From positions 67,010 to 117,452 of the forward strand of contig CBFGKC010000008.1 in NCBI GenBank assembly GCA_965649265.1: a stretch of 50,443 nt of DNA, given 5' to 3'. Position numbers and translations under genes: made by a program. Positions 21,560 through 43,894 of the stretch are shown one piece after another (position 1 is the stretch's first letter; each line of letters opens with the position of its first letter). The notes beneath the pieces were generated by a model. It did not search any database and was not told the DNA's origin. It saw only the letters and a list, made by a program, of their open reading frames with translations. Source of the DNA: a candidate division WOR-3 bacterium (GTDB taxonomy: Bacteria; Hydrothermota; Tepidihabitantia; B3-TA06).

Positions 21560-22258
21560 TTACTTGCCGTTTGTTCCGTTGGGTTTTTTGGGCGCGGCGC
21601 GCTTTTCCCGAATCTCCAGGCTCAGGTAATCGAGCGCCCATTTGAGGCCGGCGGCCAGGTCCGAAAGCGTGCGCACGTCCGCAAGCTCGACGCCCAGGTG
21701 GACGACGGTCTGCGCGACCTCGGGACGGATGCCCGTTATCACGCACTGCGCGCCCAGGAGCTTGACCGACGCCACCGTTTTCAATAAGTGGTTGGCCACC
21801 GCCGAGTCCACGCCCGAAACGCCGGTGATGTCTAAAATCGCTACTTTCGTTTGCGTGGCCGCGATGGTTGTCAGGAGCGCGTCCGTAAGGTTTTGCGAGC
21901 GCCGGGTGTCGAGCGCGCCGATGAGCGGCAGCACGAGCACGCGGTCCCAAATCTTGATGATGGGGGTGGAGAGCTCTTCAATGGCCCCGCGCTGCTTGAG
22001 GATGGTGTCAAGGCTCCTTTCCAGCTCGGCCTGTTTGGCCTCGTTCTGCTCTCGCTCGTAGACGAGCTGCTCTATCATGAAGTTGGTGGATATTTCGACG
22101 GGCGTGAAGTCGTCCTCCCCCTCCTCGCTCACCTCGACCGTTTGCGAGTAGTCGCCCGCGGTGACCGAGGCGAATATCTCCAAAAGCCGCTCCACGCGTT
22201 TGTTTGAAACCATTATCTCGTCTTGCTCCGCGTGAGAGGTGTTTTTAGATGTCGCCAT
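21560..22258 (-). CDS. RsbR-like STAS protein (type A: short N-domain, coiled coil, STAS)
   Basis: EELSTPII.IW..VLVLPLIG.LDT.R...ILDITGV..VDS.VANHL...GIRPEVAQT.VHLG matches the RsbR STAS domain. Start MATSK (22258) overlaps the upstream stop. Confidence 0.88.
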   Translation of the reverse strand: MATSKNTSHAEQDEIMVSNKRVERLLEIFASVTAGDYSQTVEVSEEGEDDFTPVEISTNFMIEQLVYEREQNEAKQAELERSLDTILKQRGAIEELSTPIIKIWDRVLVLPLIGALDTRRSQNLTDALLTTIAATQTKVAILDITGVSGVDSAVANHLLKTVASVKLLGAQCVITGIRPEVAQTVVHLGVELADVRTLSDLAAGLKWALDYLSLEIREKRAAPKKPNGTNGK

Positions 22259-22715
22259 TGGAGAGCCACTCCCGGGCTTCCTGTTCGGTCTTGAAGAATT
22301 TGGACTTCCTGATGTGCGGGAAGATCTTGAGCAAAAGGCTGCCCAGCACGCGCACGGTGGCCGAGGCACCGTATGCGGCAAGCTTCTGGCAGAGCACCTC
22401 GTGCGGCAGCTTGGCGAGCGCCTCCCTTGCCGCGGGTGGGATGCCCTTGAGGGCGCTCAGGTCGACGAGCAGTTCGAGGGAGTCGGTCTCTTTCGAGTAC
22501 AGGGTGAGGTTCTCGTAAATCTCTGTCGCCTGGCCGGGCGTCATCTCGCCCTCGAGCTTCATGCAAAGGACCCGCGGAGGCTCGAACCTGGCGTTGGTGA
22601 AGCTGTGTGCGTAGCTGTCGTGTTCGGTGGGGGGGATGTTAGATGGTGAGTCAGGTGGTGAGTCAGGTGGTGTGTTACGGGGGGTGTTACGGGGTGTGTT
22701 ACGGGTGGGCTGCAT
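22245..22715 (-). CDS. STAS/SEC14 (SpoIIAA-like) protein, FEPP type, with a repeat-derived N-terminal extension
   Basis: FEPP..L..KLEG, LLVDLSALKGIPPAARE, FFKTEQEAREWL; ATG 22715 after GGAGG; N-terminus (RNTP)x3 (PDSP)x2. Confidence 0.8.
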   Translation of the reverse strand: MQPTRNTPRNTPRNTPPDSPPDSPSNIPPTEHDSYAHSFTNARFEPPRVLCMKLEGEMTPGQATEIYENLTLYSKETDSLELLVDLSALKGIPPAAREALAKLPHEVLCQKLAAYGASATVRVLGSLLLKIFPHIRKSKFFKTEQEAREWLSNGDI

Positions 22716-22785
22716 ACTCGTCCTCCTCCACATGGTCGGCGCTGCCGACGTCTATCGGGTTGCCCAAGAGGGTCCGAGTATTCAT
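22699..22785 (-). CDS. Possible 28-aa small ORF (MNTRTLLGNPIDVGSADHVEEDEYAAHP)
   Basis: AAAGGAG 6 nt before the ATG; fills the gap between an rsbR-like gene and a STAS/SEC14 gene and overlaps the latter's start. Confidence 0.3.
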   Translation of the reverse strand: MNTRTLLGNPIDVGSADHVEEDEYAAHP

Positions 22786-22837
22786 GTTCATCTCCTTTTC
22801 TTTCACCGTCCTCAGAAAATCCTGCGTGCAGTCTAGA

Positions 22838-23497
22838 TCAATTCGCGTTTTCCTTGTTATTCTTTCGTCTGTTTATGACGAAATCAAGGCGATTGAACGC
22901 CCATTTCAGCCCTTCCGAGAGGTTGGCAAGCGTCTCGACCTCAGAGAGGTCGACGCCGAGATGGACTATTGTCTGGGCCACTTCGGGCTTGATGCCCGTT
23001 ATCACGCACTCGGCGCCCAGAAGCTTGACCGCGGAGACGGTTTTCAGCAAATGATTGGCCACGGCCGAGTCCACGGTCGGTACGCCGGTGATGTCTAAAA
23101 TGGCCACCTTTGTTTGCGTGAACGCGATGTTCGTCAGCAAGGCCTCGGTGAGGTTCTGTGAGCGCCGCGTGTCCAGGGCGCCGATAAGGGGCAGCACGAG
23201 CACCTGATCCCATATCTTGATGATCGGGGTCGAGAGCTCCTCGATGGCCTGGCGCTGCAACTCGATGACCGAGAGCTTATCCTCAAGCTCCTCAGCGCGC
23301 TTGCGGCTTTCCGAGACTTGTGAGCCGAGGTCGGCAATGAGATAGTTCATCCCCGTCTCGACCGCGGTCAGGGTATCATCCTTTTCGGCGTTTATAGGGA
23401 CCTTTACCTCGAAATCGCCCGACGCTGCAAAGGTCAGGGCTTCCTCGATGTTCTTGAGTCTTAGTTCGTAATCCTTAAGTTTTTCCTGAATGGTCAT
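22838..23497 (-). CDS. RsbR-like STAS protein (type B)
   Basis: RLKNIEEAL..AASGDF N-domain, coiled coil, and RsbR-type STAS (ELSTPII, GALDTRRSQ, DITGVPTVDSAVA, GIKPEVAQT). Confidence 0.9.
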   Translation of the reverse strand: MTIQEKLKDYELRLKNIEEALTFAASGDFEVKVPINAEKDDTLTAVETGMNYLIADLGSQVSESRKRAEELEDKLSVIELQRQAIEELSTPIIKIWDQVLVLPLIGALDTRRSQNLTEALLTNIAFTQTKVAILDITGVPTVDSAVANHLLKTVSAVKLLGAECVITGIKPEVAQTIVHLGVDLSEVETLANLSEGLKWAFNRLDFVINRRKNNKENAN

Positions 23498-23514: not shown

Positions 23515-23889
23515 TCAATTGACCGAAGTTTTTTGCTCTGCAAGCCAGGTCTCGGCTTCCTGTTCGTCCTTGAAGAACCCTGTGTCCTTGGATTTACCTA
23601 TGGCGGTGACGGCTATTTTCGCGAACATCCTGAGCACCGGTCTTGCGCCCATTATCGCGATCTTGCCCCATTTGACTTCCTTGGCCCTCGTGGCTATGAG
23701 CTTGCGGGTCTTGCCGTCGATGAGTTCCTGCGCAGGGTCGTCCATGAAGACGAGGAAATACTTCTGCTTATCGCCTTCGTATTTCATGAGTTCATCCACG
23801 AATCCGTTGACGTCGTTTTCATCAAATCTCTGGTAAATATCGGCTCGCAGAATACCCTTGGCATTGTCGAACCAGACCTTGTACTTCAA
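23515..23889 (-). CDS. STAS/SEC14 (SpoIIAA-like) protein, W(Y/F)D..G type
   Basis: VWFDNAKGILR, KIAIMGARPVLRM, FFKDEQEAETWL; TTG start at 23889 after AAGGAGG. Confidence 0.82.
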   Translation of the reverse strand: MKYKVWFDNAKGILRADIYQRFDENDVNGFVDELMKYEGDKQKYFLVFMDDPAQELIDGKTRKLIATRAKEVKWGKIAIMGARPVLRMFAKIAVTAIGKSKDTGFFKDEQEAETWLAEQKTSVN

Positions 23890-24100: not shown

Positions 24101-24229
24101 TGACTTTATAATATCTTTATTAAGACACACTCCTACATGCAGTCGGTGTTTTTGAATGGCTGTGTGGGACCGGGCGATTAAAAGAATAGAGAAATAAATC
24201 TTTTAACGCTTAAATCCTAGGAGGATTCG

Positions 24230-25378
24230 ATGACAGCCAAGTTCAGTCTCGAATCGGAGTTCGTCCAATCCCTTAAAAAAGACATTTCCGATTTCATCAA
24301 GGCCGGAACAGAGCAAAAGGACACCGAAAAACGCTTTAACGATCTCGCCTTGCGGTTGTTCGAGTACCAGTTCAACGCGAACGTCCCTTACCAGCGCTTC
24401 TGCGCGAAGCGCGGGGTCGAGCCGGGCCAGATCAAGAAATGGGAGGAGATCCCCGCGGTACCCTCCAACGTTTTCAAGGAGATCCCTCTCGCCACCTTCC
24501 CTGCGGACCAGGCGGTAAAACTCTTCGTAAGCTCGGGCACCACCAGCCCGGACAAGCGCTCCAAGGTCTACATCGACGAAACGGGTCTCGAACTAATGGA
24601 CATTTCGTTTCAGGAATCCATCCAGAACTACTTCTACAAGTCCAGGGACGAAAAGCTGCCCTCCCTGCTCGTTTCACCCTCGCCCGCAGCGTTCCCGAAC
24701 AATCCCTCGCTCATGATCCACCTTTCCATCACGCTCATGAAGGGTCACTACGAAGGCGATCTCGAATACTTCATCACCCGCGAGGGGCTCGACGTTCAGG
24801 GGCTCATAAAAAGGCTGAAAGAGGTCGAGCAAGCGGGCAAGCCGGTATGGATAGGCGGTCCCACATTCGGTTTCGTCCACTTCTACGACTACTGCAAGAG
24901 CCAGGGCATCCGCTTCAAGCTTCCCGAGGGCTCGAGGATCATTGACGCGGCCGGCTACAAGGGTCAGTCCAGAAGCATGCCCAAGGAGGAGTTCCTGGCG
25001 CTCTCGAACGAGATAACGGGCATACCCTACTCCCACCTCATCAACAACTACTCGATGTCCGAGGTGCACGCCATATACGCCGACAACGTCCTCTACAACC
25101 ACGTCAGGGGAATCGAGAAACCGCGTCACAAGTTCATCCCGCCCTGGACGAGGGTGGTGATAACGGACCCCGACACCCTGGAGCCGCTCCCAAAGGGGCA
25201 GGACGGCCTCATCTGCCACTACTGTCTCGCGAATCTCAATTCCGTCATGGCCATTCAGACCGACGACCTCGGTCATACAATAGAAGACGGGTTCGAGATT
25301 CTGGGACGCGCAAAGGGTGCCGAGGCGCGCGGCTGCTCGATTACGGTGGACGAGATAATAGCGGCGCAGGCCAGCTAG
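24230..25378 (+). CDS. luxE: LuxE-family acyl-protein synthetase, copy 1
   Basis: LFEYQ...N..Y, IPAVP...FK, SSGTT P-loop, GGPTF, YSMSE, QTDDLG and C-terminal GRA.GAE.RGCS with the acylated Cys. Family homologue, not a bioluminescence operon. Confidence 0.85.
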   Translation: MTAKFSLESEFVQSLKKDISDFIKAGTEQKDTEKRFNDLALRLFEYQFNANVPYQRFCAKRGVEPGQIKKWEEIPAVPSNVFKEIPLATFPADQAVKLFVSSGTTSPDKRSKVYIDETGLELMDISFQESIQNYFYKSRDEKLPSLLVSPSPAAFPNNPSLMIHLSITLMKGHYEGDLEYFITREGLDVQGLIKRLKEVEQAGKPVWIGGPTFGFVHFYDYCKSQGIRFKLPEGSRIIDAAGYKGQSRSMPKEEFLALSNEITGIPYSHLINNYSMSEVHAIYADNVLYNHVRGIEKPRHKFIPPWTRVVITDPDTLEPLPKGQDGLICHYCLANLNSVMAIQTDDLGHTIEDGFEILGRAKGAEARGCSITVDEIIAAQAS

Positions 25379-25807: not shown

Positions 25808-26488
25808 TCAAGCCTTAGGTTTAGAGGGGTTCTTGTCGTTGCCGTTCGAATCTTGCTTCTTTTCGAGCCGCTTGAACGCCCACTTGAGGCCTTCGGAGAG
25901 GTTGGAGAGCGTCTCTACCTCCGAAAGATCGACGCCGAGATGAACGATTGTCTGGGCAACCTCGGGTCTTATACCCGTTATCACGCACTCGGCTCCGAGC
26001 AGCTTTACCGCGGCAACCGTCTTTAACAAATGGTTGGCCACCGCCGAGTCGACGTTTGGCACGCCGGTGATATCCATTATCGTGATCTTTGACTGCGTGT
26101 TTGCTATGTCGGTCAGAAGTGTTTCGGTCAGGCTCTGCGAGCGGCGAGTGTCCAGGGCGCCTATGAGAGGAAGCACCAGGACCTGATCCCATATCTTGAT
26201 GATGGGCGTCGAGAGCTCCTCTATGGCCTCGCGCTGCTTCTCGATGAGATTAAGCTTGTCTTCAAGTTCGTCCGCGCGCTTGCGGCTCTCGTCGATTGCA
26301 TCTCCCATATCGGCTATGAGAACTTTTACCCCGGTCTCGACGCCGGTCAGCGCATCATAATTCTCCTGGTCGAAGTCGAACTCGATGTCGAACTCTCCGC
26401 AGCCCGCTTTGGACAAGATTTCTTCCAGCTTCTCGAGTCTTGCGTCCAAGTCTCTTATCGGTTTTGTGGCTTCTTTAGCAGGCATCAT
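25808..26488 (-). CDS. RsbR-like STAS protein (type B)
   Basis: RLEKLEEILSKAGCGEF, coiled coil, RsbR STAS motifs; AAGGAG RBS. Confidence 0.9.
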   Translation of the reverse strand: MMPAKEATKPIRDLDARLEKLEEILSKAGCGEFDIEFDFDQENYDALTGVETGVKVLIADMGDAIDESRKRADELEDKLNLIEKQREAIEELSTPIIKIWDQVLVLPLIGALDTRRSQSLTETLLTDIANTQSKITIMDITGVPNVDSAVANHLLKTVAAVKLLGAECVITGIRPEVAQTIVHLGVDLSEVETLSNLSEGLKWAFKRLEKKQDSNGNDKNPSKPKA

Positions 26489-26525: not shown

Positions 26526-26930
26526 TTACCCCTTGCTTGCAGCCGCTTTTTTATCCAGTTCCTTCTGTCCCCTTATCCATGCAATGGCTTCTTCCTCGTC
26601 TGAGCAGAACTTGAAATCCTTGCCTCGACCTTGTGCGGACATTACTATCTGGGCAACCATGCGGATAACAGGCTTGGCGCCGAGGAGCGCCATCTTTTTG
26701 AAGTGAACCTGGTCACCTTTTTCCTTCGCGACCTTGCGCTCTTCCTTGCCGACCATTTTCTGAGCTTCGTCGAATAACCAGCCGATGACATAGCGCTGCT
26801 GTTCCGGGGTATATCTAGTGGCTTCCTTATAGAACTGCTCGAGGGACTCCACGTCGAATCTCTGGTAAATCTCTCCGCGTAAGACTCCTTCTTTTTCATC
26901 GTACCATAGCTTGAACTTTTCTGTTGCCAC
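26526..26930 (-). CDS. STAS/SEC14 (SpoIIAA-like) protein, WYDEKEG type
   Basis: FKLWYDEKEGVLRG, GAKPVIRMV, EEEAIAWI. Probable GTG start at 26930, since the ORF's ATGGAGG overlaps the RBS. Confidence 0.82.
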   Translation of the reverse strand: MATEKFKLWYDEKEGVLRGEIYQRFDVESLEQFYKEATRYTPEQQRYVIGWLFDEAQKMVGKEERKVAKEKGDQVHFKKMALLGAKPVIRMVAQIVMSAQGRGKDFKFCSDEEEAIAWIRGQKELDKKAAASKG

Positions 26931-27028
26931 TGTTGCCTCCATGAGGTTTGTTTATTTACCCTCCTGTACGGGGAACAGTTTTCTCCAGCCAGCATTACCC
27001 ACACATACCTGAATCTAAGAAATGCAAT

Positions 27029-27121
27029 ATAATAATGCTTTTCGGGTCTTTGTCAAGGTCTTTTTTCGAGTTAAGGGGTATTTAGAAATAGACTTGACAC
27101 GTAAAAGAATTTATCTACAAT
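27029..27121. promoter_or_regulatory. Back-to-back sigma70 promoters, module 2
   Basis: Minus: TTGACA(27056-51)-16-TATTAT. Plus: TTGACA(27094-99)-16-TACAAT. Confidence 0.72.
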
Positions 27122-27127
27122 GTCAAT

Positions 27128-27251
27128 AAACAGGGCTAAAGAACGATAGTTTCCCAAAACAGCTGGTGTTTCGAGTGCGACCTCGTATGTGGGGTTGGGC
27201 GCTTGAAACGAGTTAAAGAACGTTTTATGCGTTTGATGCATGGAGGATTCA
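27128..27251 (+). ncRNA. Conserved structured 5' leader of luxE (candidate cis-regulatory RNA), module 2
   Basis: GGGCT...TTCCC..AACAGCTGGT then hairpin GTTTCGAGTGC-GACCTC-gtatgt-GGGGTT-gg-GCGCTTGAAAC (27168-27209); homologous in modules 3-5. Confidence 0.5.
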
Positions 27252-28403
27252 ATGAACGAGAAATACGCCACCAAATCCGAATTCGTAGACACTCTCGCAA
27301 AAGATATAGGAAATTTCATTCAAAACGGGGCAGATCAGCCCGACGCCGAGAACGATAAGGTGTTCAACGATTTGTCCATGAGGCTGTTCGAGTACCAGTA
27401 CAACGCGAACCCTGTCTATCAAAAGTACTGCGACAAACGCGGTGTGAAGCCCGGGATGGTGAGCGTCTGGTCTGATGTGCCAAGTGTCCCTGCGACGGCC
27501 TTCAAGGAAGTCCAGCTGCGCACGTTTCCGGAGGAGGAAACGGTGCTGTTCCTGACCAGCAGCGGAACGACCAACCCCGAGAAGCGTGCGAAGATCAGCT
27601 TCAATGAATCTATGCTTAAGATATACGATCTTGTAGGCATATGCATCAATGACAGGGGTCTGTACAAATCCGCTGACGAGAAGCTCCAGGCCATCGTGCT
27701 CGGACCCGATCCCGAACTGATGCCCAGTGTGGCGATAGGAATGCGTCAACTGAAGATAAGCGTAGACAGGCATTCGAAAGGAAAGCCTGAGTTCTTCATA
27801 AATTCAAAAGGATTCGATTTTGTCGGACTCGTGGAAAGACTGAGGCAAGTGGAGCAATCGGGCGAACCTTGCGTGATTGTCGGCGCAACGTTCGGGTATG
27901 TCCACTTTTTTGACTACTGCAACACTCAGGGTATCTCCTTCAAGCTTCCCGCTGAAAGCCGCGCCATGGACGGAGGAGGCAACAAGGGAAAAGGGAGAGA
28001 AATCTCAAAAGAGGAGTACTGGAGGTTAGGGGAAGAGGTACTAGGAATACCGCGGAGTCATCTTGTCAATCTATATGGCATGACCGAGATGCAGGCTGCA
28101 TACTTCGACAACGTTTTCTACAATCATTGTAAAGGCATTTCGGAGCCTCGCTGCAAGATGATACCCCATTTTGCCAGGGTCGTGGTCGTTGATCCCGATA
28201 CCCTGGAACCCTTGCCTGAGGCCGAGCGGGGTCTCTTGCGTCAGCACAGCGTGGCCAATCTCGTGACTGTACAGGCCGTTCAAACCGATGATATGGGCTT
28301 CGCAACGGGTTCCGGCTTCCAGGTCACCGGGCGCGCCCGGGATGCGGAGTCGCGCGGCTGCTCTATCGCCTACGACGAACTCATCTCGGCTCTGAAAGCG
28401 TAA
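27252..28403 (+). CDS. luxE: LuxE-family acyl-protein synthetase, copy 2
   Basis: TSSGTT, GATFG, DGGGNKGK, YGMTE, QTDDMG, RGCS; ATG 27252 after GGAGG. Confidence 0.85.
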   Translation: MNEKYATKSEFVDTLAKDIGNFIQNGADQPDAENDKVFNDLSMRLFEYQYNANPVYQKYCDKRGVKPGMVSVWSDVPSVPATAFKEVQLRTFPEEETVLFLTSSGTTNPEKRAKISFNESMLKIYDLVGICINDRGLYKSADEKLQAIVLGPDPELMPSVAIGMRQLKISVDRHSKGKPEFFINSKGFDFVGLVERLRQVEQSGEPCVIVGATFGYVHFFDYCNTQGISFKLPAESRAMDGGGNKGKGREISKEEYWRLGEEVLGIPRSHLVNLYGMTEMQAAYFDNVFYNHCKGISEPRCKMIPHFARVVVVDPDTLEPLPEAERGLLRQHSVANLVTVQAVQTDDMGFATGSGFQVTGRARDAESRGCSIAYDELISALKA

Positions 28404-28824: not shown

Positions 28825-29226
28825 TTACGCCGGGCTTGCGCCTTTTTTGTCCTTTTCTTTCTCCGCTCTCAACCAGGTCAGGCCTTCCTCCTCGGTTTCG
28901 CAGAAGAAGAAATCCTTTTTCCTTCCTATGGCGGTTATGACCACGGTGTAGACCATGCGGATTACCGGTTTAGCGCCAATGGCTACAACCTTTTTGAAGT
29001 GCAGATCCTTGACCTTATCCTTTGCTATCTTGCGCGCCTCCTTATCGGGCATCTTTTGAGCGTCGTCGTACATCCGACCGATAAAAAAGCGCTGCTGTTC
29101 CGGGGTGTACTTGGAGACTTCTGCAAAGTACTGTTCGAGGGTTTCTACATCGAAGGTGTCATAGATTTCTGTCATAAGCACGCCCTCTTTCTCATCATAC
29201 CAGAGTTTAAACTTGTCTTTCGCCAT
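28825..29226 (-). CDS. STAS/SEC14 (SpoIIAA-like) protein, WYDEKEG type
   Basis: FKLWYDEKEGVL, GAKPVIRMV, ETEEEGLTWL; GAGGAG RBS. Confidence 0.82.
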   Translation of the reverse strand: MAKDKFKLWYDEKEGVLMTEIYDTFDVETLEQYFAEVSKYTPEQQRFFIGRMYDDAQKMPDKEARKIAKDKVKDLHFKKVVAIGAKPVIRMVYTVVITAIGRKKDFFFCETEEEGLTWLRAEKEKDKKGASPA

Positions 29227-29549: not shown

Positions 29550-30695
29550 ATGAACGAGAAATACGAATCCAAATCGGAGTTCGTGGTGTCCCTCGGAAAC
29601 GAAATAATGGATTTCATCAGGAATGGAGCGGCCGGGCCCGATAGCGAAATGATTTTTAACGATTTGTCCATGAGACTCTTCGAGTACCAGTACAATGCGA
29701 ACATTGTCTACCGGAAGTATTGCGACAAAAAGGGTGTAAAGCCCGGGATGGTAAAAGCGTGGATGGATGTTCCTGCCGTCCCTGCCGTGGCTTTCAAGGA
29801 AGTCGAACTTCGCACGATTTCCGATGAAGAAACCGTACAGGTGCTGACGAGCAGCGGGACGTCCAACCCCGAGAAGCGCGCAAGGATCAGTCTTAACGAA
29901 ACGCAGGTCAAGATACGCGAATTGAACGGTGAATATCTCAAAGATCGCGGATATTACAAATCCCCGGACGAGAAGATCCATGCCTTGCTCCTGGCGCCGG
30001 ATCCGGCACTCATGCCCAGCGCGGCGGCCGGGATGAGTCAGATAAAAATTCTTATAGAAGGGCACTCTATCGGGAATCCGGAATTCTTCATTAGTCCCAA
30101 GGGATTCGATTTTAGCGCACTCGCGGAAAGACTGAAGCTTGCGGAGAAGACCGGCGAACCCGTGTTCATTGCGGGGGCCACCTTCGCGTACGTCCACTTT
30201 TTTGACTTCTGCCAGGCCCAGAACATCACCTTCAAGCTTCCAGCGGGAAGCCGCGCCATGGACGGCGGCGGCAACAAGGGAAAAGGAAGGGAACTCTCAA
30301 AGGAAGATTATCGGATGCTGGCCGAAAAGATCCTGGGCATACCCCAGAGTCACATGATCAATCACTACGGCTTGATAGAGATGGAAGCATCTTACGTAGA
30401 CAACGCCTTCTACAATCACGTGAGAGGCATTTCCGAGCCGCGCGCCAAGATGATCCCGCATTTTGCAAGAGTCGTTGTCGTCGATCCTGATACACTGGTC
30501 CCTCTCGCAAAGGGCGAGAAAGGCCTGCTGCGGCAGCACAGCGTGGCCAATCTTACCACCGTTCAGGCCGTTCTTACCGACGACATGGGCTACGAGATAG
30601 GTTCAGGCTTCGAGATCACGGGACGCGCCCGGGATGCGGAATCGCGCGGCTGCTCTATAGCCTACGACGAACTGATCTCGGCGCAAAAATCGTAA
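29550..30695 (+). CDS. luxE: LuxE-family acyl-protein synthetase, copy 3
   Basis: TSSGTS, GATFA, DGGGNKGK, YGLIE, LTDDMG, RGCS; ATG 29550 after AAGGAGG. Confidence 0.85.
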   Translation: MNEKYESKSEFVVSLGNEIMDFIRNGAAGPDSEMIFNDLSMRLFEYQYNANIVYRKYCDKKGVKPGMVKAWMDVPAVPAVAFKEVELRTISDEETVQVLTSSGTSNPEKRARISLNETQVKIRELNGEYLKDRGYYKSPDEKIHALLLAPDPALMPSAAAGMSQIKILIEGHSIGNPEFFISPKGFDFSALAERLKLAEKTGEPVFIAGATFAYVHFFDFCQAQNITFKLPAGSRAMDGGGNKGKGRELSKEDYRMLAEKILGIPQSHMINHYGLIEMEASYVDNAFYNHVRGISEPRAKMIPHFARVVVVDPDTLVPLAKGEKGLLRQHSVANLTTVQAVLTDDMGYEIGSGFEITGRARDAESRGCSIAYDELISAQKS

Positions 30696-30699
30696 TCCT

Positions 30700-31334: not shown

Positions 31335-31736
31335 TTATGCCGGGCTTGCGCCTTTTTTGTCCTTTTCTTTCTCCGCCCTTATCCAGGCCAGGGCTTCCTC
31401 CTCGGTTTCGAAGTATTTGTTGTCTTTTCCCTGTCCCACTGCGGTCATCACGATGTTGGATACCATTCGGATTACCGGTTTGGCGCCGAGGTTAGCTATT
31501 ATTTTGAAATGAGCGGATTTAAATTTCTCCTTGGCAACCCTGCGCGCCTCCTTGTCGGGCATTTTCTGGGCATCGCAGAATACCCAACCGATGATATAGC
31601 GCTGCTGCTCAGGGGTGAACTTAGAAACCTCATTAAAGTACTCTTCGAGTGTTTCCACATCGAATTTCTTGTAGATCTCTGACCGAAGAACCCCTTCCTT
31701 CTCATCGTACCATAGTTTGAAAGTCTTTTCTTCCAT
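31335..31736 (-). CDS. STAS/SEC14 (SpoIIAA-like) protein, WYDEKEG type
   Basis: FKLWYDEKEGVLRS, GAKPVIRMV, FETEEEALAWI; ATG 31736 after AGGAGG; own TTGACA-16-TATCAT promoter at 31868-31841. Confidence 0.82.
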   Translation of the reverse strand: MEEKTFKLWYDEKEGVLRSEIYKKFDVETLEEYFNEVSKFTPEQQRYIIGWVFCDAQKMPDKEARRVAKEKFKSAHFKIIANLGAKPVIRMVSNIVMTAVGQGKDNKYFETEEEALAWIRAEKEKDKKGASPA

Positions 31737-31978: not shown

Positions 31979-32383
31979 TTATTTTTGACCGGCTGCGGCT
32001 TGTCTCTCTTTCTCCTTTTCCGTTCTTATCCAGGCCAGGGCCTCTTCTTCCTTTTCGAAAAACTTGACGTCTTTTCCTCGCCCCTGGGCGGTTAATACGA
32101 TGCTGGCGACCATGCGGATCACCGGTTTGGCACCCCAGATTGCCGCCTTCTTGAAGTGCACAAGCGAGGCTTTCTCTTTGCCAATCCTTCGCTCTTCCTT
32201 GCCGGGCATTTGCTGTGCATTGTCCAATATCTGACCGACGATATATTGCTGTTGTTCCGGCGTATACCTGGACATATCGGCACTGAGCTCTTCGAGGGTT
32301 TCCGCGTTGAATCTTTCGTATATTTCTCCGCGAAGCACGCCCTCCTTTTCATCGTACCAGTGCTTGAACTTCGGCGACGCCAT
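31979..32383 (-). CDS. STAS/SEC14 (SpoIIAA-like) protein, WYDEKEG type
   Basis: FKHWYDEKEGVLRG, WGAKPVIRMV, FFEKEEEALAWI; AGGAGG RBS. Confidence 0.82.
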   Translation of the reverse strand: MASPKFKHWYDEKEGVLRGEIYERFNAETLEELSADMSRYTPEQQQYIVGQILDNAQQMPGKEERRIGKEKASLVHFKKAAIWGAKPVIRMVASIVLTAQGRGKDVKFFEKEEEALAWIRTEKEKERQAAAGQK

Positions 32384-36143: not shown

Positions 36144-36809
36144 TCAGGAACGCAGCTGGGACTTGGGTCTCTGATCGGCTGACTCGGAATCCTCCAGCCG
36201 CCTGAAGGCCCACTTTAAACCCTCGGAGAGGTTTGAGAGGGTCTCGACCTCCGAAAGATCCACTCCGAGATGGACTATTGTCTGGGCTACCTCGGGTCTT
36301 ATACCCGTTATCACGCACTCGGCTCCGAGAAGCTTTACGGCCGCAACCGTCTTTAACAAATGGTTGGCCACCGCCGAGTCAACGTTAGGCACACCGGTGA
36401 TGTCGAGTATCGTTACTTTTGACTGCGTGCCGGAGATGTCGGTCAGAAGCGTTTCAGTAAGGCTCTGCGAGCGGCGGGTGTCAAGGGTGCCTATGAGAGG
36501 GAGGACAAGAACCTGCTCCCATATTTTAAGAATCGGCGTGGAGAGCTCCTCTATGGCCTGGCGTTGCTTCTCGATTAATTCGAGCTTCTCCGCAAGCTCT
36601 TCCGCGCGTTTGCGGCTCTCGTCGATCGTGTCTCCCATATCGGTTATGAGGACTTGTATTCCGGTTTCAACGCCCGTCAGGGCATCAGGATTCTCCTCAT
36701 CAAGTTCGATCTCCACGTTGAATTCGCCGCACGCCGCCTGGGAGAGAATCTCTTCCATCCTTGCGAGTCTTTCATCCAGATCCCTTATTCCTATGGATTC
36801 TTTTGGCAT
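36144..36809 (-). CDS. RsbR-like STAS protein (type B)
   Basis: RLARMEEILSQAACGEF, coiled coil, RsbR STAS motifs; close paralogue of 25808-26488. Confidence 0.9.
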   Translation of the reverse strand: MPKESIGIRDLDERLARMEEILSQAACGEFNVEIELDEENPDALTGVETGIQVLITDMGDTIDESRKRAEELAEKLELIEKQRQAIEELSTPILKIWEQVLVLPLIGTLDTRRSQSLTETLLTDISGTQSKVTILDITGVPNVDSAVANHLLKTVAAVKLLGAECVITGIRPEVAQTIVHLGVDLSEVETLSNLSEGLKWAFRRLEDSESADQRPKSQLRS

Positions 36810-36835: not shown

Positions 36836-37243
36836 TCACGCCTTGCTTGCCGCGGATGTTTCATCCTTGTTCTTTTGTTCTTTTAACCAGGCAACACCTT
36901 CGTTTTCGCTATCGAAGAACCTGAGGCTTTTTCCTTTTCCCACGGCGGTCAGAACTATCTTGGCAACCATGCGAAGACCCGGTTTTGCGCCCCAGATAGC
37001 GATATTACCCCACTTTATTACCTTTCCCTTCTCCGCCGCGACCTTACGGGTCTCCTTATCTACGAGTTTTTGAGCATCGTCGTTCACAAAGCAAATAACA
37101 TAACGTTGCTGTTCTTCGGGATAAGTTGCCATGTCGGAAAAGAACTGTGCGGTTGCCTCCGGGTCGTATCTTTCAAGGACATTAACGTGCAGGAACCCTT
37201 CTTTTTCATCGAACCAGTGTTGAAACTTTTTTCTGTCTATCAT
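36836..37243 (-). CDS. STAS/SEC14 (SpoIIAA-like) protein, WFDEKEG type
   Basis: FQHWFDEKEGFL, WGAKPGLRMV, FFDSENEGVAWL; AGGAGG RBS. Confidence 0.82.
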   Translation of the reverse strand: MIDRKKFQHWFDEKEGFLHVNVLERYDPEATAQFFSDMATYPEEQQRYVICFVNDDAQKLVDKETRKVAAEKGKVIKWGNIAIWGAKPGLRMVAKIVLTAVGKGKSLRFFDSENEGVAWLKEQKNKDETSAASKA

Positions 37244-37576: not shown

Positions 37577-38722
37577 ATGAGTGCGAAATACGCTTCCGAT
37601 TCTGAATTTGTTCATTCCCTTGCAAAGGATATAGAGGTTTTTATAAAAGCCGGTCCAGAACAGCCCGATACGGATAAGAAGTACAACGAATTGTCCCTGA
37701 GGCTGTTCGAGTACCAGTACAACACAAACATTCCATATCAGAAGTTCTGCGATAAACGTGGTGTTAAACCGGGCACAATAGAATCCTGGGAAAATGTTCC
37801 CGTAGTCACAACCTCCGCATTCAAGGAAGTGACATTTAGAACCTTCCCGGAGGAAGAGACGGTAATGCTTTTTACAAGCAGCGGAACAGGCAATCCGGAC
37901 AAACGTTCAAAGGTCTACATGAATGAGATGGGCCTCAAGTTATTCGATTTGTCCACTCAAGCCGCAATAGGCGCCGGTCTTTACAACTCCCCGGATGAGA
38001 AGTTGCATGCATTCCTTCTTGGACCCGATCCGGAACTGACACCCGAGGCAGCCATAGTTGTACGTGGTTTGATACAGGTGGTTCAGGGTCATTACATCGG
38101 TAAACCGGAATTCTTCGTCAAGCCCACCGGATTTGATTTCCCGGGTCTTGTATCCAGACTCAAACAAGCCGAAGATTCGGGTGAACCGGTTGTGCTGGCC
38201 GGAGCGACGTTCGGATACGTTCACTTCTTCGACTACTGCCAGTCCCAGGGTCTTTCTTTCAAGCTGCCCGAGGGCAGCCGCTCTTTTGACGGCGGAGGTA
38301 ACAAGGGCAAGTCGAGAGAAATCACGAGAGACGAGTACTGCCAGCTGGGAGAAAAGATACTGGGCATACCCCCGTATCTCATGGTCAACTGTTACGGAAT
38401 GGTCGAGGTACCCCTGCCTTTCATGGATAACGTTTTCTACAGTCACAAAAGAGGTCTTTCCGACTCGCGCTACAAGATGATTCCTCACTGGGGAAAAACC
38501 CTTGTTGTCGATCCCGATACGCTCGTGCCTTTGCCGAAGGGCGAGCAAGGTTTGCTATGCCATCACTGCCTGGCCAATCTTGTATCCGCTCAGGCCGTTC
38601 AGACGGATGACATAGGTGTTGCAGTCGGTTCCGGGTTTAACATCCTGGGCCGCGCCAAAGGCTCGGAGGCACGCGGCTGCTCCATCGCCGTGGACGAACT
38701 CATCTCCGCGCAAAAATCGTAA
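37577..38722 (+). CDS. luxE: LuxE-family acyl-protein synthetase, copy 5
   Basis: TSSGTG, GATFG, DGGGNKGK, YGMVE, QTDDIG, RGCS; AAGGAGG RBS. Confidence 0.85.
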   Translation: MSAKYASDSEFVHSLAKDIEVFIKAGPEQPDTDKKYNELSLRLFEYQYNTNIPYQKFCDKRGVKPGTIESWENVPVVTTSAFKEVTFRTFPEEETVMLFTSSGTGNPDKRSKVYMNEMGLKLFDLSTQAAIGAGLYNSPDEKLHAFLLGPDPELTPEAAIVVRGLIQVVQGHYIGKPEFFVKPTGFDFPGLVSRLKQAEDSGEPVVLAGATFGYVHFFDYCQSQGLSFKLPEGSRSFDGGGNKGKSREITRDEYCQLGEKILGIPPYLMVNCYGMVEVPLPFMDNVFYSHKRGLSDSRYKMIPHWGKTLVVDPDTLVPLPKGEQGLLCHHCLANLVSAQAVQTDDIGVAVGSGFNILGRAKGSEARGCSIAVDELISAQKS

Positions 38723-38906: not shown

Positions 38907-39572
38907 TCAAGAACGAGCCGTGATCGTTGGTTTGGAACCGCCTGCCTCGGACTGATCGAGCCGATTGAACGCCCACTTGAGGCCCTCCGAAAGGTTTGCA
39001 AGCGTCTCGACGTCCGAAAGATCCACGCCGAGGTGAATGATGGTCTGGGCCACGTCCGGCCTTATTCCCGTTATCACGCACTCGGCGCCCAGAAGCTTGA
39101 CCGCCGTTACCGTCTTGATGAGGTGGTTGGCCACCGCCGAATCCACCGTCGGTACGCCCGTGATATCGAGTATCGCCACTCTTGTCTGAGTCGCGGCTAC
39201 ATCGGTCAACAGCGACTCCGTGAGTCTCTGTGAACGCCGCGTGTCTATGGCTCCTATGAGTGGCAGAACGAGCACTCGCTCCCAAATCTTTATTATCGGC
39301 GTCGAAAGCTCCTCTATCGACCGTCGCTGCTGCTCAATGAGATCGAGCTTCTGTTTCTGCTCGTATACAAGCTGCTCTGCGAGAAAGTTGACCGAGTACT
39401 CCACCGGTGTAAAATCATCCTCCTCTGAATCGTCCACCTTCAGGCGCGCACCGTACTCCCCGGTCGCTATCGAAGACATGATATCGATTACCCTGTTAAG
39501 GCGAGTCTTCGGAATCGCGATCATTTCCCTGCTTTGTTTCTCCTGCGGATTCATAGGTTCCTCCTCCGGCAT
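38907..39572 (-). CDS. RsbR-like STAS protein (type A)
   Basis: RLNRVIDIMSSIATGEY..EDDFTPVE N-domain shared with 21560-22258; RsbR STAS motifs; TAATG coupling to the upstream gene. Confidence 0.88.
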   Translation of the reverse strand: MPEEEPMNPQEKQSREMIAIPKTRLNRVIDIMSSIATGEYGARLKVDDSEEDDFTPVEYSVNFLAEQLVYEQKQKLDLIEQQRRSIEELSTPIIKIWERVLVLPLIGAIDTRRSQRLTESLLTDVAATQTRVAILDITGVPTVDSAVANHLIKTVTAVKLLGAECVITGIRPDVAQTIIHLGVDLSDVETLANLSEGLKWAFNRLDQSEAGGSKPTITARS

Positions 39573-39928
39573 TATTTACCCTCGTTAAGCCAGGTTCGCG
39601 CTTCAGGCTCGGTCTTCACGAACCTCGATTCATCTATACCCGGCAGCATTTTCAATATGAAGCCTCCAAGAATTCGCAGCTTGGTAGAGGCGCCGATAAT
39701 CGCCAGTTTGGACATGACGAATTTGCTTCCCATAACGCGAAGGGTTTCCCTGGATTCGGGCGGAACGTCAGTGAGATATTTGACATCGATCGCTACCTTG
39801 ATTTTATCGCCGGGCCTTACGAAATTGCTCAATTTAGCTATCAAATCCTCGACCTGTTCGGGAACCAGGTCTCCTTCAAGGTTCAAAAAGACTTTGTCCG
39901 GGGGCTCGAATAGGATCATTTCTTTCAA
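39572..39928 (-). CDS. STAS/SEC14 (SpoIIAA-like) protein, FEPP type
   Basis: FEPPDKVFLNLEG, VAIDV..LTDVPPESRE, FVKTEPEARTWL; TTG start after AGGAGG; TTGACA-16-TATAAT promoter at 40130-40103. Confidence 0.82.
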   Translation of the reverse strand: MKEMILFEPPDKVFLNLEGDLVPEQVEDLIAKLSNFVRPGDKIKVAIDVKYLTDVPPESRETLRVMGSKFVMSKLAIIGASTKLRILGGFILKMLPGIDESRFVKTEPEARTWLNEGK

Positions 39929-40605: not shown

Positions 40606-40992
40606 TTACCTTTGCGCAGATTCTGCTTTTTTGTCAGCCTTCAGCCACGCAATGGCGTCGGTCTCCTTGTCAAAGAAGCCGACAATGTCTTTCTTTCCTA
40701 TCGCGACCAGGAGGATCTTTGAAACCATCCGGAGTGCAGGCTTTGCACCCCATACTGCAATCTTGCCCCAGTCGAACGTGACAGCTTCGTTGCGTAAAAG
40801 CTTGCGCGTCTCCTTGTCCGGTATTTCCTGTGCAGGCTCCGCAACGAATGCAAGAATCCTGCGCGTTTTTTCGATACCGAATTTCTCCCTGATATCCCTG
40901 AAAAAACTGTGAACGGCCGGAACATCGTACCTTTCCAAAACCCCAATGCGGAGAATGCCCTCTTTCTCGTCATACTCGGCGCTGTATTTCAT
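40606..40992 (-). CDS. STAS/SEC14 (SpoIIAA-like) protein, YDEKEG type
   Basis: EYDEKEGILR, WGAKPALRMV, FFDKETDAIAWL; ATG 40992 after GGAGG. Confidence 0.82.
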   Translation of the reverse strand: MKYSAEYDEKEGILRIGVLERYDVPAVHSFFRDIREKFGIEKTRRILAFVAEPAQEIPDKETRKLLRNEAVTFDWGKIAVWGAKPALRMVSKILLVAIGKKDIVGFFDKETDAIAWLKADKKAESAQR

Positions 40993-41046
40993 AGTGTCCT
41001 CCATGTATTTCCATATCTTTTTTTGCCCTCCGCCGAGAATTTCGAT

Positions 41047-41200: not shown

Positions 41201-41305
41201 TTTATTGTATGTGAGGAGGGGGAAGTCTTCTCATTCAGAAGACTCCCTGGCGGATTTGCGGTGTATTCTGAAAAGGGCTAAGGCAAAAAACGCCAAGGAG
41301 GATTC

Positions 41306-42448
41306 ATGTCCGATAAGTACTCCAACGATTCTGAGTTCGTGATTGATCTGAGAAAGGGTATATGGGATTTCATTGAGGGCGGCGCCGTTCAACCCGGAAC
41401 GGACGACAAGTTCAACGATTTAGCTCTGCGCCTCTTCGAATACCAGTTTTCGAAGAACATCCCATATCAGAAATTCTGTGTGAAACGCGGAGTAACACCG
41501 GACAAGATAGATTCGTGGGAGCGGATTCCTGCGGTGCCCGTCAACGCCTTTAAGGAGGTGGCGCTCTGCACGTTTGCGCCCGAGGATGCCGACAAGGTAT
41601 TCCTCTCTTCGGGCACCACCGATCCCGCGAAACGCTCCAAGGTGTACGTCGACAAGGAGGGGCTTCGCTTCCTTGACCTCTCCTATATACGCTCTGTCGA
41701 GGCCTATGTCTTTCCGCGTTCGGAGAAGCTTCGCTCGCTTCTCATGTTCCCGGGACCGGACGTGTTTCCTCCCGACTCCGTTTTCGTCTACGGCCCCATG
41801 AAGACGATTGCAGGTCACTACCTTGAGCCCCTCGAGTTTTTCGTAACCAAGGAAGGCTTTAACCTGCCCGGTCTCATCGAGCGCATGAAGCGCGCGGAGG
41901 CCGAGCAGGAGCCCGTGCTCGTCATGGGCGCAACCTTCGGCTGGGTTCATGTGTTCGACTTCTGCAAAGCCCAGGGCATCAAGTTCAAGCTTGCCGAGGG
42001 CTCGCGATTCCTCGACGGCGGCGGCTACAAGGGCAAGTCGCGCGAGATGACCAAGGAAGAGTACTTCAAACTCGCCGGGGAGATATCGGGTATACATCCC
42101 GCGTACCTGTTGAACAGCTACGGGATGAGTGAGAGCCAGAGCATCTTCCCCGACAATGCCTTGTACAATTATTTGAACGGCAACGAATCGGAGCCGCGCT
42201 ACAAGATGACGCCCGCATGGGCGAGGGTGGTCATGGTCGATCCCGAGACGCTCGATCCCCTGCCCAAGGGCGAGAAGGGTCTCGTGAAGATATACAGCCT
42301 TTCCAACATCCATACAGTCATGGCCCTTCAGACCGACGACATCGGCCACGAGATAGGCTCCGGTTTCGAGGTGGTGGGACGCGCCATGGGTGCCGAATCC
42401 CGTGGCTGCTCCATCGCCATGGATGAGATTGTCAACGCTCAAAAGTAA
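41306..42448 (+). CDS. luxE: LuxE-family acyl-protein synthetase, copy 6
   Basis: SSGTT, GATFG, DGGGYKGK, YGMSE, QTDDIG, RGCS; AAGGAGG RBS. Confidence 0.85.
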   Translation: MSDKYSNDSEFVIDLRKGIWDFIEGGAVQPGTDDKFNDLALRLFEYQFSKNIPYQKFCVKRGVTPDKIDSWERIPAVPVNAFKEVALCTFAPEDADKVFLSSGTTDPAKRSKVYVDKEGLRFLDLSYIRSVEAYVFPRSEKLRSLLMFPGPDVFPPDSVFVYGPMKTIAGHYLEPLEFFVTKEGFNLPGLIERMKRAEAEQEPVLVMGATFGWVHVFDFCKAQGIKFKLAEGSRFLDGGGYKGKSREMTKEEYFKLAGEISGIHPAYLLNSYGMSESQSIFPDNALYNYLNGNESEPRYKMTPAWARVVMVDPETLDPLPKGEKGLVKIYSLSNIHTVMALQTDDIGHEIGSGFEVVGRAMGAESRGCSIAMDEIVNAQK

Positions 42449-42460
42449 AGGGTTAAAAAA

Positions 42461-43894
42461 ATGTCTGCTCCATCAACTTTAAATTTGCCTGCTTTTTACA
42501 TCCCAGGCCTTGCCAAGGCCGACCTTGGGGAATTTACCTCTCTGGAGTTCGGGTATACGGAACAAAAGGTAAGGGTGGAATCCCCTAAGCTTACGCCCGA
42601 GCTTTTGAAGAGGATAATCAAGGATATCAAGGATGCCCGCGAGAACTACCTGGTGCATCAACCCGTTCACAAGATATTGAATACAATAGATAAGGTCATG
42701 AACCTGTGGAAGGATCCTTCGTATCCACTGCGCAAGCTGGCGCAGGAGCTTCTGCCTACAATCACAGGTTTCTCCGCGTCCATGATTTCCCAGATTCTCT
42801 CGAGCTTCATGACCATGATGAACGGCGACACCCTCAAACTCCTGCTCAAGGAAGAACTGGGCGACCCGCTCGTGCTCGACGAGTTCCGTCCGCGCCAACA
42901 CGCTGACGGTCTTTCACGCGCCTACGGCCCGGAACTCACGACGGCGGTTTTCGCCGGCAACGTGCCCGCGATAGCCCTCCCGAATACTATCTACGCCCTT
43001 CTCATGAAGTCGGCCATTCTCGGCAAATCATCCTCAGAGGAGCCGCTGTTCGCGACGCTCTTCGCCCAGTCAATCGCGGAAGTAGATCCCGACCTCGCCC
43101 GCTCGGTCGCAATGGTCGCTTGGAAGGGCGGCGACGAGGAGATAGAGCGCATTGCGTTCGGCGCGGCTGATGCAGTGGTCGTTTACGGCTCCGAGCACTC
43201 CGTGAACGAGGTACGAAAAAGGGTCCCCCCCGGGGTGCGTTTCATCTCCTACGGTCACAAGCTCAGCTTCGGTGTCATCGGCAGAGAGGCTCTTTCACAG
43301 GACAAGGTCAAACGTACCGCGATGCTTGCCGCAACCGACGCCTCCGTTTTTGACCAGCAGGGGTGCCTCTCTCCTCACGTCTTCTACGTCGAAGAGGGCG
43401 GCGATACTACCGCAAGGGATTTCGCCGGGCTGCTTGCCGAGGCCATGGAAACATTCAATATAGGAATACCGAGAGGTAAGATTTCCCCGGACGAAGCGGC
43501 CAACATCAACCAGCTGCGCGGTCGCTACGAGTTCAGGGAGTACTCAGACGATGGAATCGCGCTCCATACGAGTTCACCCGGCACGGACTGGACGGTCATC
43601 TTCGAGCAAGATCCCAAGTTCGAGCCCTCGTGTCTTAACAGGACAATCAGAGTGAAGCCCGTAAAGGACGTGATGGAGGTTGCCGAACTCGTGAAGCCTT
43701 TAAAGGCCTATCTTCAGACGATGGGTGCTGCGCTGCCCGAATCTCGCGTCATCCCTCTCGCGGAAGAGATGGGCAAGCTGGGTATGGACCGAATACCACC
43801 TCTCGGTCGCATGACCGCACCTTCGCTTCTCTGGCGTCATGACGGGCGGTTCAACCTTCTGGACTTCCTTCGCTGGACAGACGTAGAAAAATGA
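42461..43894 (+). CDS. luxC: LuxC-family acyl-CoA/acyl-protein reductase, copy 2
   Basis: AGNVP, KSSSEEP, WKGG, YGHKLSFG, catalytic DQQGCLSP, HDG; paralogue of 34484-35911. Confidence 0.88.
   Translation: MSAPSTLNLPAFYIPGLAKADLGEFTSLEFGYTEQKVRVESPKLTPELLKRIIKDIKDARENYLVHQPVHKILNTIDKVMNLWKDPSYPLRKLAQELLPTITGFSASMISQILSSFMTMMNGDTLKLLLKEELGDPLVLDEFRPRQHADGLSRAYGPELTTAVFAGNVPAIALPNTIYALLMKSAILGKSSSEEPLFATLFAQSIAEVDPDLARSVAMVAWKGGDEEIERIAFGAADAVVVYGSEHSVNEVRKRVPPGVRFISYGHKLSFGVIGREALSQDKVKRTAMLAATDASVFDQQGCLSPHVFYVEEGGDTTARDFAGLLAEAMETFNIGIPRGKISPDEAANINQLRGRYEFREYSDDGIALHTSSPGTDWTVIFEQDPKFEPSCLNRTIRVKPVKDVMEVAELVKPLKAYLQTMGAALPESRVIPLAEEMGKLGMDRIPPLGRMTAPSLLWRHDGRFNLLDFLRWTDVEK

Follow-up and report, generated by a model that had tools for sequence, protein, structure and literature searches.

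A 50,443-nt stretch of a candidate division WOR-3 (Stahlbacteria) genome (contig CBFGKC010000008.1, positions 67,010 to 117,452 of the forward strand; hereafter the window) carries a cluster in which genes for LuxE-type acyl-protein synthetases are repeatedly paired with genes for small STAS-fold proteins (here SA) and RsbR-type stressosome proteins. The gene inventory, compiled from an open reading frame (ORF) listing and Pfam scans with curated cut-offs, agrees with the counts in a preliminary description made by inspection of the DNA: six luxE-like (E1-E6), two luxC-like (C1, C2), ten small STAS (S1-S10) and five RsbR-like genes (R1-R5) between positions 21560 and 43894. Their order is S1-R1, S2-R2 <> E1, S3-R3 <> E2, S4 <> E3, S7-S6-S5 <> E4-C1, S8-R4 <> E5, S9-R5, S10 <> E6-C2, where <> marks a head-to-head arrangement and the minus-strand genes are written in their reading direction. 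All S and R genes lie on the minus strand and all E and C genes on the plus strand. Every luxE gene (6/6) is head-to-head with a STAS/SEC14-type gene, as had been described, and that partner is always of type A as defined below. Comparison with related genomes, where the same genes adjoin a stressosome core, identifies the region as part of a real, conserved, lineage-specific stressosome variant in which all parts come from known families and the architecture is new.

At the left end of the cluster, R1 (21560..22258, minus strand; about 232 aa from the likely ATG; PF01740, 56.2 bits) comes after S1 (22245..22715, minus), a type-B gene whose matches to PF11964 (38.8 bits) and PF25056 (32.5 bits) are both above the cut-off. 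R2 (22838..23497, minus; PF01740, 60.6 bits) is preceded by the type-A gene S2 (23515..23889, minus; longest ORF to 24072), which has weak PF25056 and PF11964 matches, scores 190 bits with our own SA profile and stands head-to-head with E1 (24230..25378, plus; PF04443, 89.4 bits), a LuxE-like acyl-protein synthetase with a C-terminal RGCS motif. The true R1, S1 and S2 are probably shorter than their longest reading frames. In the second module, R3 (25808..26485, minus; PF01740, 59.4 bits) and the type-A gene S3 (26526..26942, minus; PF25056 23.1 and PF11964 22.6 bits, both below cut-off, placed by the SA alignment) face E2 (27252..28403, plus; PF04443, 86.8 bits). The third contains only S4 (28825..29226, minus), a type-A gene with no RsbR gene after it, no Pfam match at E <= 0.001 and 56-68% identity to S3 and S5-S7, and E3 (29550..30695, plus; PF04443, 81.3 bits).

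Three type-A genes follow in a row, S5 (31335..31736, minus; PF25056, 26.1 bits), S6 (31979..32383, minus; PF11964, 27.2 bits) and S7 (32598..32996, minus; PF11964, 23.7 bits), the last of them head-to-head with E4 (33323..34474, plus; PF04443, 83.9 bits), which is followed by C1 (34484..35911, plus; PF05893, 311.5 bits), encoding a LuxC-like acyl-protein/acyl-CoA reductase. R4 (36144..36809, minus; PF01740, 60.5 bits) and the type-A gene S8 (36836..37243, minus) face E5 (37577..38722, plus; PF04443, 74.6 bits), whose closest orthologues in the tree are in other genera (81% identity to the LuxE of the relative G002). R5 (38907..39572, minus; PF01740, 58.9 bits) has its start overlapped by the stop of the type-B gene S9 (39572..39919, minus; PF11964, 24.7 bits). 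The last module consists of the type-A gene S10 (40606..41004, minus; PF11964 18.1 bits; own SA profile 188 bits), E6 (41306..42448, plus; PF04443, 74.8 bits) and the LuxC-like reductase gene C2 (42461..43894, plus; PF05893, 318.6 bits). Two plus-strand ORFs (28723-29310 and 31008-31682) were rejected as genes, being antisense shadows of S4 and S5.

Profile searches confirm the enzyme families. PF04443 matched all six LuxE proteins (74.6-89.4 bits; cut-off 24.9) and PF05893 both LuxC proteins (311.5 and 318.6 bits; cut-off 21), and a genome-wide profile search found the LuxE genes of this genome to be all in the window (n = 6). A profile of the LuxE paralogues had a sole match in the PDB, the LuxE of Photobacterium phosphoreum (7xc6_E, E 2.3e-30), and C1 matches the corresponding LuxC (7xc6_A). 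The catalytic cysteines are retained, as the preliminary description had said, with RGCS in 6/6 LuxE and DQQGC in 2/2 LuxC. The invariant RGCS cysteine of LuxE aligns with the acylated Cys364 of 7xc6_E and the arginine of a GRA motif with Arg355, and DQQGC of C1 is aligned to DQQAC of 7xc6_A. A GGGNK lysine motif is also invariant in LuxE, at a position where the HMMER alignment is off by one residue. PMC9157457 describes LuxE as an acyl-protein synthetase, Cys364 as its self-acylation site and the roles of Cys364 and Arg355. By alignment, the window paralogues keep the residues predicted to serve adenylation, self-acylation and thioester reduction.

The fatty acid reductase of bioluminescence (LuxC-LuxE plus LuxD; 7xc6) is built from the same two families, and it has in common with the window proteins the acylated Cys and the Arg of a Lys/Arg pair in LuxE, the DQQxC cysteine in LuxC and, in two of the six modules, the luxE-luxC order. 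In contrast to that system, only two of the six LuxE genes have an adjacent LuxC and four have none, and the genes are coupled divergently to signalling genes. The absence of luxAB and luxD, described earlier for the window, extends to the whole genome (2.74 Mb, 96% complete), which has no match to Bac_luciferase (PF00296) or to PF02273. Scores against the NCBIfam equivalogs of the bioluminescence enzymes (NF052244, NF052251) were far under the cut-offs, at 70.5-83.6 bits for the three LuxE proteins scanned (cut-off 550) and 83.5-102.9 bits for both LuxC proteins (cut-off 750). To judge from these comparisons, the LuxE and LuxC of the window are not bioluminescence orthologues.

R1-R5 are proteins of 219-232 aa with a C-terminal STAS domain that matches PF01740 in all five (56.2-60.6 bits; cut-off 22.6). 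Their proposed kinship with stressosome proteins holds, in that a profile of the family is best matched in the PDB by RsbR of Vibrio vulnificus (7o0i_B, 1.9e-37) and Listeria (7b0u_A, 6.6e-36), with RsbS trailing at 4e-18. The STAS domain is near-invariant across 15 RsbR proteins of the family, and the DITGV and AQT threonine motifs, whose threonines we take to be T171 and T205 of B. subtilis, are found in 15/15. These proteins had also been said to lack a classical sensor domain. In the AlphaFold model of R4 (pLDDT 74), the STAS domain is preceded only by a helix (11-26) and, after a loop, by a long second helix (43-89). No Pfam domain was detected in the RsbR N-termini at E <= 0.01, and this part of the protein is variable among family members, with no conserved Cys.

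The remaining stressosome components are encoded elsewhere in the genome. The preliminary description reported that rsbS and rsbT are absent from the window, which is correct; the genome has one pair, located on contig C3. This locus (L009, G000:C3, 33-9537, G000 being the source genome) encodes a PAS histidine kinase, a sigma-54 activator, five SA-like proteins, RsbS and RsbT, and continues with a 316-aa protein, a 142-aa SA/SB-like protein (SB denoting type B) and a REC-DUF4388 response regulator. The predicted RsbS is a STAS-only protein with a VDSF motif and B. subtilis RsbS as its best PDB match (1.5e-28). The RsbT-like GHKL kinase (134 aa) matches HATPase_c at 45.9 bits, PF13581 (HATPase_c_2) at 26.9 bits against a cut-off of 27.4, and TIGR01925 at 53.9 bits, which is below cut-off; in the PDB it matches only SpoIIAB (2e-4). 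The RsbT-like copy of a relative (G006) reaches 40.8 bits with PF13581. A search of the genome with PF13581 returned four long-ORF matches but not the small RsbT-like gene, which was recovered by synteny and a Pfam scan; a profile of RsbT-like sequences detected this gene, immediately behind RsbS, as the sole copy in the genome. The 316-aa protein encoded after RsbT has no Pfam or NCBIfam match and no meaningful PDB sequence match, and its look-alikes, HATPase_c_2 + SpoIIE proteins, were identified by a language model (ESM Atlas) alone.

Further RsbR-type genes are present on contig C14 (one gene) and contig C2 (two genes). The two on C2 (L011, G000:C2, 5746-8854) are adjacent and encode proteins of 513 and 548 aa in which TPR repeats are fused to an RsbR-type STAS domain, making these TPR-STAS proteins candidates for further stressosome subunits with protein-interaction input. 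The genome total is thus eight RsbR-type paralogues per one RsbS-RsbT pair. The stressosomes of Bacillus, Listeria, Vibrio vulnificus and Moorella likewise contain RsbR-type STAS proteins with both Thr motifs, a VDSF RsbS, a GHKL kinase encoded after RsbS, and several RsbR paralogues per RsbS-RsbT pair. In the present case, however, RsbR starts with a helical hairpin of some 85 residues rather than with a globin-like domain (as in RsbRA and V. vulnificus) or another sensor, a separate small STAS-fold gene lies ahead of every RsbR, and LuxE/LuxC are attached. A further difference is that no SpoIIE/PP2C Pfam match and no sigma-B-type partner-switch module were identified in this genome.

The ten SA proteins (115-156 aa) are of two types. 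Type A (n = 8) has a W/E-Y/F-D..G motif, and type B (n = 2; S1 and S9) is in each case encoded directly upstream of an RsbR-type gene. The preliminary description had classed all ten as STAS/SEC14 proteins, and nine of them do match PF11964 (SpoIIAA-like) and/or PF25056 (DUF7793) at E <= 0.0046, but only three reach a curated Pfam cut-off (S1, S6 and, marginally, S5), the other six being sub-threshold. Clusters of SA look-alikes in the ESM Atlas include PF11964/DUF7793-type proteins. The PF11964/DUF3478 and PF25056/DUF7793 proteins (Shewanella 2ook and 2q3l), which have been proposed as CRAL-TRIO-like carriers, are similar to SA in size and in having a STAS fold, but most SA proteins fall below the Pfam cut-offs for them, and SA genes occur in tandem arrays of up to 31 copies and are tied to stressosome or two-component genes. 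Structures of PF11964 proteins resemble CRAL-TRIO carriers according to PMC2954212. Our literature search on DUF7793/PF25056 returned no publications.

S8, modelled with AlphaFold on an alignment of 30 sequences, has a STAS fold (pLDDT 90). In a fold search the model was closest to an ordinary STAS protein (4xs5, Z 10.7) and to the DUF3478 carrier-like 2q3l (Z 10.5, rmsd 3.3 over 116 residues), followed by RsbS (10.1), SpoIIAA (9.8), the STAS domain of a stressosome RsbR (9.1) and the STAS domain of YchM bound to acyl carrier protein (8.7). The top four Z scores differ by less than 1, and the fold search therefore cannot separate a lipid-carrier STAS from a partner-switch STAS. The YchM/DauA case (3ny7) is one in which a STAS domain contacts a protein with an acyl thioester on a flexible arm; it is part of a transporter there and a free protein here, and a parallel to the acylated tail of LuxE is an idea only. 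Two arginines and one tryptophan are invariant in the SA alignment and one lysine is near-invariant. According to the alignment and the S8 model, an invariant Arg and the near-invariant Lys are located at the start of helix 2, which is also where the phospho-serine and kinase contact of SpoIIAA and RsbS are found. No phosphorylatable Ser/Thr or nucleophile is conserved in SA, and the residue before the invariant Arg can be T, E, A, S or F. Complex prediction for S8 and R4 gave an ipSAE of 0.10 in both runs relative to a mark of 0.32, and this result, obtained without controls, is evidence neither way.

We compared the arrangement with that of the sister species (G001) and other Stahlbacteria relatives (G002, G003, G004, G006 and further genomes). 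The linkage of luxE, STAS/SEC14 and rsbR genes, whose absence from other genomes had been named as grounds for abandoning the idea, recurs in eight loci as the unit LuxC<-LuxE <> SA->RsbR->RsbS->RsbT. Six of these are in genomes of two genera (L002-L007) and two on metagenome contigs (L026 and L027), and a ninth locus (L017) has the same order up to RsbS, where the contig ends. In these relatives SA, RsbR, RsbS and RsbT form one operon that is divergent from LuxE-LuxC, which places the module in a stressosome-type system, as the preliminary description had supposed. Twelve of the 13 LuxE genes of relatives are head-to-head with an SA gene, L008 being the exception, and in G003 and G006 the sole full-length RsbR match in the genome is the LuxE-linked one. 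The LuxE gene of L026 (5294-6458) is broken up into overlapping frames of 280 and 158 aa, in a unit that is otherwise intact, owing either to a frameshift or to a sequencing error. Gene order across these loci shows LuxC<-LuxE <> SA->RsbR->RsbS->RsbT to be the ancestral unit, of which the LuxE and SA part, with or without RsbR and LuxC, appears six-fold in the source genome and the RsbS-RsbT core is single and on another contig. This conserved synteny is the main evidence suggesting that LuxE/LuxC and the stressosome genes work together.

Co-occurrence of LuxE and SA in the phylum was observed only in this family. LuxE was found in 8/10 and the SA profile in 10/10 other genomes of the same family, and none of 50 genomes from other families in the class had LuxE. 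Among the remaining 261 genomes of the phylum, 8 had LuxE and 4 others had SA. Coverage beyond the phylum was thin, consisting of a pattern-based contig scan with a LuxE alignment, which is insensitive and gave 8 loci, and a metagenome scan with a narrow SA alignment, which gave 2. The LuxE-LuxC pairs outside the family were in metabolic contexts without SA or RsbR in 6/6 loci examined, next to genes for a class-III aminotransferase, a PlsC-type acyltransferase or thioredoxin. The closest LuxE outside the family (46% identity) is encoded on an archaeal contig (L020; TBP gene at 292-864) in the order SCP2 -> LuxE -> LuxC -> DUF2284 (1608-5176), and it nests among Stahlbacteria LuxE in the tree, a position that suggests transfer between domains. 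A small lipid-transfer-type gene stands beside LuxE on this contig, although the carrier is SCP2 and not STAS, the genes are co-directional rather than divergent, and there is no RsbR, RsbS or RsbT nearby. We found no description of a LuxE-stressosome link in literature on LuxE, STAS, stressosomes and lipids, in a search that largely did not cover subscription journals.

The six modules are old, diverged paralogues. Identities between paralogues are 48-71% for LuxE, 30-84% for SA, 53-80% for RsbR and 65% for LuxC, and in the tree several of them have one-to-one orthologues in the sister species G001, with orthologues of E5 present in other genera. Pairwise LuxE identity is correlated with pairwise SA identity, both for the six pairs of the window (r = 0.92, reached by 6/720 permutations) and for 16 pairs including those of relatives (r = 0.80, reached by 0/10000 permutations), which fits duplication and retention of whole modules.

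Each spacer between SA and luxE contains back-to-back sigma-70-like promoters, with matches of 11/12 for five luxE genes, 10/12 for E6 and 10-11/12 for the facing SA genes; a promoter scan of the region found 28 sites, compared to 14.2 +/- 3.8 in shuffled sequences. The divergent control region at 27029..27250, delimited by alignment, promoter scan and nhmmer, is an example of this layout and combines the two promoters with a conserved luxE leader (about 125 nt). E3, E4 and E5 are preceded by the same layout, which is weaker at E1 and E6. The leader is common to modules E2-E5 (27128-27250, 29425-29546, 33202-33321 and 37444-37575 of the window) and two modules of G001 (L001, 9227-9348 and 12469-12584, minus strand), has been seen in this genus only, lies downstream of a near-consensus promoter and exceeds the neighbouring coding DNA in conservation. 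At the gathering threshold it matched no Rfam family, and at E <= 1 the interval 24000-41400 yielded only two chance-level eukaryotic matches. RNAalifold predicted hairpins and pairing of the Shine-Dalgarno region, with compensatory changes in only 2/28 pairs. The luxE leader is a possible cis-regulatory RNA. A search for sequencing runs covering window positions 32500-38800 gave 12 runs, all of DNA and none of RNA, the best of them containing 0.27 of the sampled words.

We interpret the region as the amplified input side of a lineage-specific Stahlbacteria (WOR-3) stressosome that operates by a lipid relay, and assign this reading as a whole a probability of about 0.5. Its parts are not equally secure. 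A functional tie between the LuxE/SA modules and the stressosome is highly probable, the specific lipid-carrier relay is advanced tentatively and at somewhat less than even odds, and the lipid/aldehyde mechanism is plausible but unproven. In this relay, each LuxE would take a free fatty acid, or a carboxylic acid of similar kind, and turn it into an enzyme-bound thioester or an aldehyde, modules that have no LuxC of their own relying on a shared one. The neighbouring SA protein would act as a small non-covalent lipid carrier or receptor taking up the substrate or product, an idea drawn by analogy from the weak PF11964/PF25056 matches, the CRAL-TRIO resemblance and the hint given by SCP2. Loaded with ligand, SA would then change the retention of RsbT by sensor-less RsbR within the stressosome, and freed RsbT would act on an output to which two products of the genes behind RsbT, the HATPase/PP2C-like protein and the REC-DUF4388 regulator, probably belong. 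The six modules may correspond to six acyl specificities.

Several observations weigh against this relay. Only two of the six LuxE genes adjoin a LuxC, so the aldehyde need not be the relevant species. The SA matches to PF11964 and PF25056 are weak (3/10 at cut-off), and the lipid-carrier-type 2q3l is tied with 4xs5, RsbS and SpoIIAA (Z spread < 1). The PP2C-like reading of the 316-aa protein comes from language-model look-alikes alone, with no SpoIIE/PP2C Pfam match in the genome (96% complete). Correlated divergence of LuxE and SA would also be expected from simple tandem duplication of units, nearest-neighbour concordance between them is 8/16, and in G002 one SA-RsbR pair separates the S8 orthologue from LuxE. 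The majority of SA genes lack a LuxE link: a type-A profile found 12 more type-A-like copies elsewhere in the genome, and two relatives have long SA arrays with no LuxE link, each on one strand. The array of G002 (L031, G002:C52, 2661-14322) comprises 31 consecutive SA genes, then RsbR, two SA, RsbR-RsbS-RsbT and a second RsbS-RsbT pair; that of G001 (L032, G001:C68, 5257-14180) comprises about 18 SA and 4 type-B genes (about 22) ahead of RsbR. Finally, G004 has SA-RsbR-RsbS and no LuxE. The preliminary description had treated each module as a synthase with its cognate binding protein, laid out like luxI/luxR. The head-to-head placement of every luxE with an SA gene stands, but given the 8/16 concordance and the many SA genes without LuxE, the claim of cognate pairs is too strong, and the luxI/luxR comparison applies to the layout only.

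The presence of SA-RsbR-RsbS in G004 without LuxE indicates that LuxE plays an accessory part rather than providing the core input. In three genomes from other WOR-3 families (G257, G252 and G258; L028, L029 and L030), two to four SA-like genes are located between a REC gene and a PAS/HisKA/HATPase histidine kinase gene followed by another REC gene. Considered together, the SA arrays, the LuxE-less G004 and the SA genes within REC/histidine kinase operons indicate that SA is a general companion of signalling kinases in the phylum. In the tree, the LuxE-linked SA proteins form one clade, separate from the array copies, and LuxE/LuxC are an accessory attached to this one SA subclade. A broader arrangement is conceivable, though on balance unlikely, in which the stressosome of this lineage reads its inputs through dozens of exchangeable, free-standing SA carriers that dock on sensor-less RsbR, one subclade of them being charged or discharged by dedicated LuxE enzymes, alone or together with LuxC. 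Such a stressosome would be a combinatorial lipid-sensing hub that integrates a range of fatty acyl species, and the first whose small-molecule input is chemically defined and produced by enzymes of its own.

It is rather improbable that the enzymes work in the opposite direction, with LuxE and LuxC removing a fatty-acid-type ligand and thereby resetting or tuning SA and the stressosome, or with SA presenting the acid to LuxE as a substrate carrier. Such a role is consistent with the same linkage data as the lipid relay, and a hand-off from carrier to enzyme is suggested by the position of the SCP2 gene, which immediately precedes the closest outgroup LuxE-LuxC. The four LuxE without an adjacent LuxC fit activation or consumption of an acid over obligatory production of an aldehyde, and the two invariant Arg and the near-invariant Lys of SA could hold a carboxylate. 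Analogous cases are the turnover of DSF-family signals by RpfB and the exchangeable FakB fatty-acid-binding proteins that serve the kinase FakA. However, the fate of the acyl group on a LuxE that has no LuxC is left unexplained, and most SA copies have no LuxE.

Even less probable is that SA binds no lipid and is a partner-switching STAS protein, either a non-phosphorylatable RsbT pseudo-substrate or antagonist or an extra core subunit, and that LuxE supplies a covalent input by acylating or adenylating a protein such as SA or RsbR. The S8 model resembles RsbS, SpoIIAA and the stressosome STAS domain (Z 10.1, 9.8 and 9.1) as closely as it does the DUF3478 carrier. Where SpoIIAA and RsbS have their phospho-serine and kinase contact, at the start of helix 2, SA has an invariant Arg and a near-invariant Lys, and in three other WOR-3 genomes SA-like genes lie within operons of the type REC-SA(n)-PAS histidine kinase-REC. 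LuxE is, moreover, by definition an acyl-protein synthetase (PMC9157457). On the other hand, there is no conserved Ser/Thr, Cys or other nucleophile at the relevant position of SA and no conserved Cys in the RsbR N-terminus, and the SA profile matches are to PF11964 and PF25056 rather than to PF01740. Least probable of all is ordinary lipid metabolism (a fatty aldehyde, alcohol or amine, or an envelope lipid), whether controlled by the stressosome as an output through shared divergent promoters or merely adjacent to it: LuxE-LuxC outside the family do occur in metabolic contexts without SA/RsbR (6/6 loci) and the strong back-to-back promoters and conserved luxE leader suggest regulated expression, but the arrangement has been kept in 8 loci of two genera and re-duplicated as a unit six times (48-71% identity), no DNA-binding protein is encoded in the modules according to Pfam, and six diverged copies of one metabolic step would be odd for a 2.7-Mb genome.

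What stressosomes sense is a long-standing question, and the activating signal is unknown for most RsbR proteins. For the Stahlbacteria system, gene context names both a candidate chemistry, in which an acyl-thioester or aldehyde is formed from a carboxylic or fatty acid, and a candidate receptor for sensor-less RsbR scaffolds, a STAS-fold protein of about 130 residues. All parts are small soluble proteins amenable to expression and reconstitution. If the lipid-relay reading is true, it would provide a first function for non-luminous LuxE/LuxC pairs and for the DUF7793/SpoIIAA-like family, which reaches 31 tandem copies in these bacteria.

The right border of the cluster is marked by a tRNA-Cys gene (43962..44033, minus strand; ARAGORN, Rfam), followed by a gene for a tyrosine integrase with an HTH_17 domain (44037-45452; PF00589). 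Beyond the integrase, the DNA is low in GC (0.38-0.46) up to position 50443 and encodes a sigma-70 region-4 protein, an HTH_3 regulator and an FtsK-gamma protein. The interval 43962-50443 is probably an integrated element that borders the cluster. A mobile-island origin of the cluster itself was considered and set aside; its GC content (0.47-0.59) is in line with that of the left flank, and the unit is vertically conserved in the family. On the other side of the cluster, the window contains four uncharacterised co-directional genes (8619-12087) between those for a phosphoglucomutase and a 941-aa surface-type protein; three of the four have no Pfam match and one encodes a DUF6754 protein (398.7 bits).

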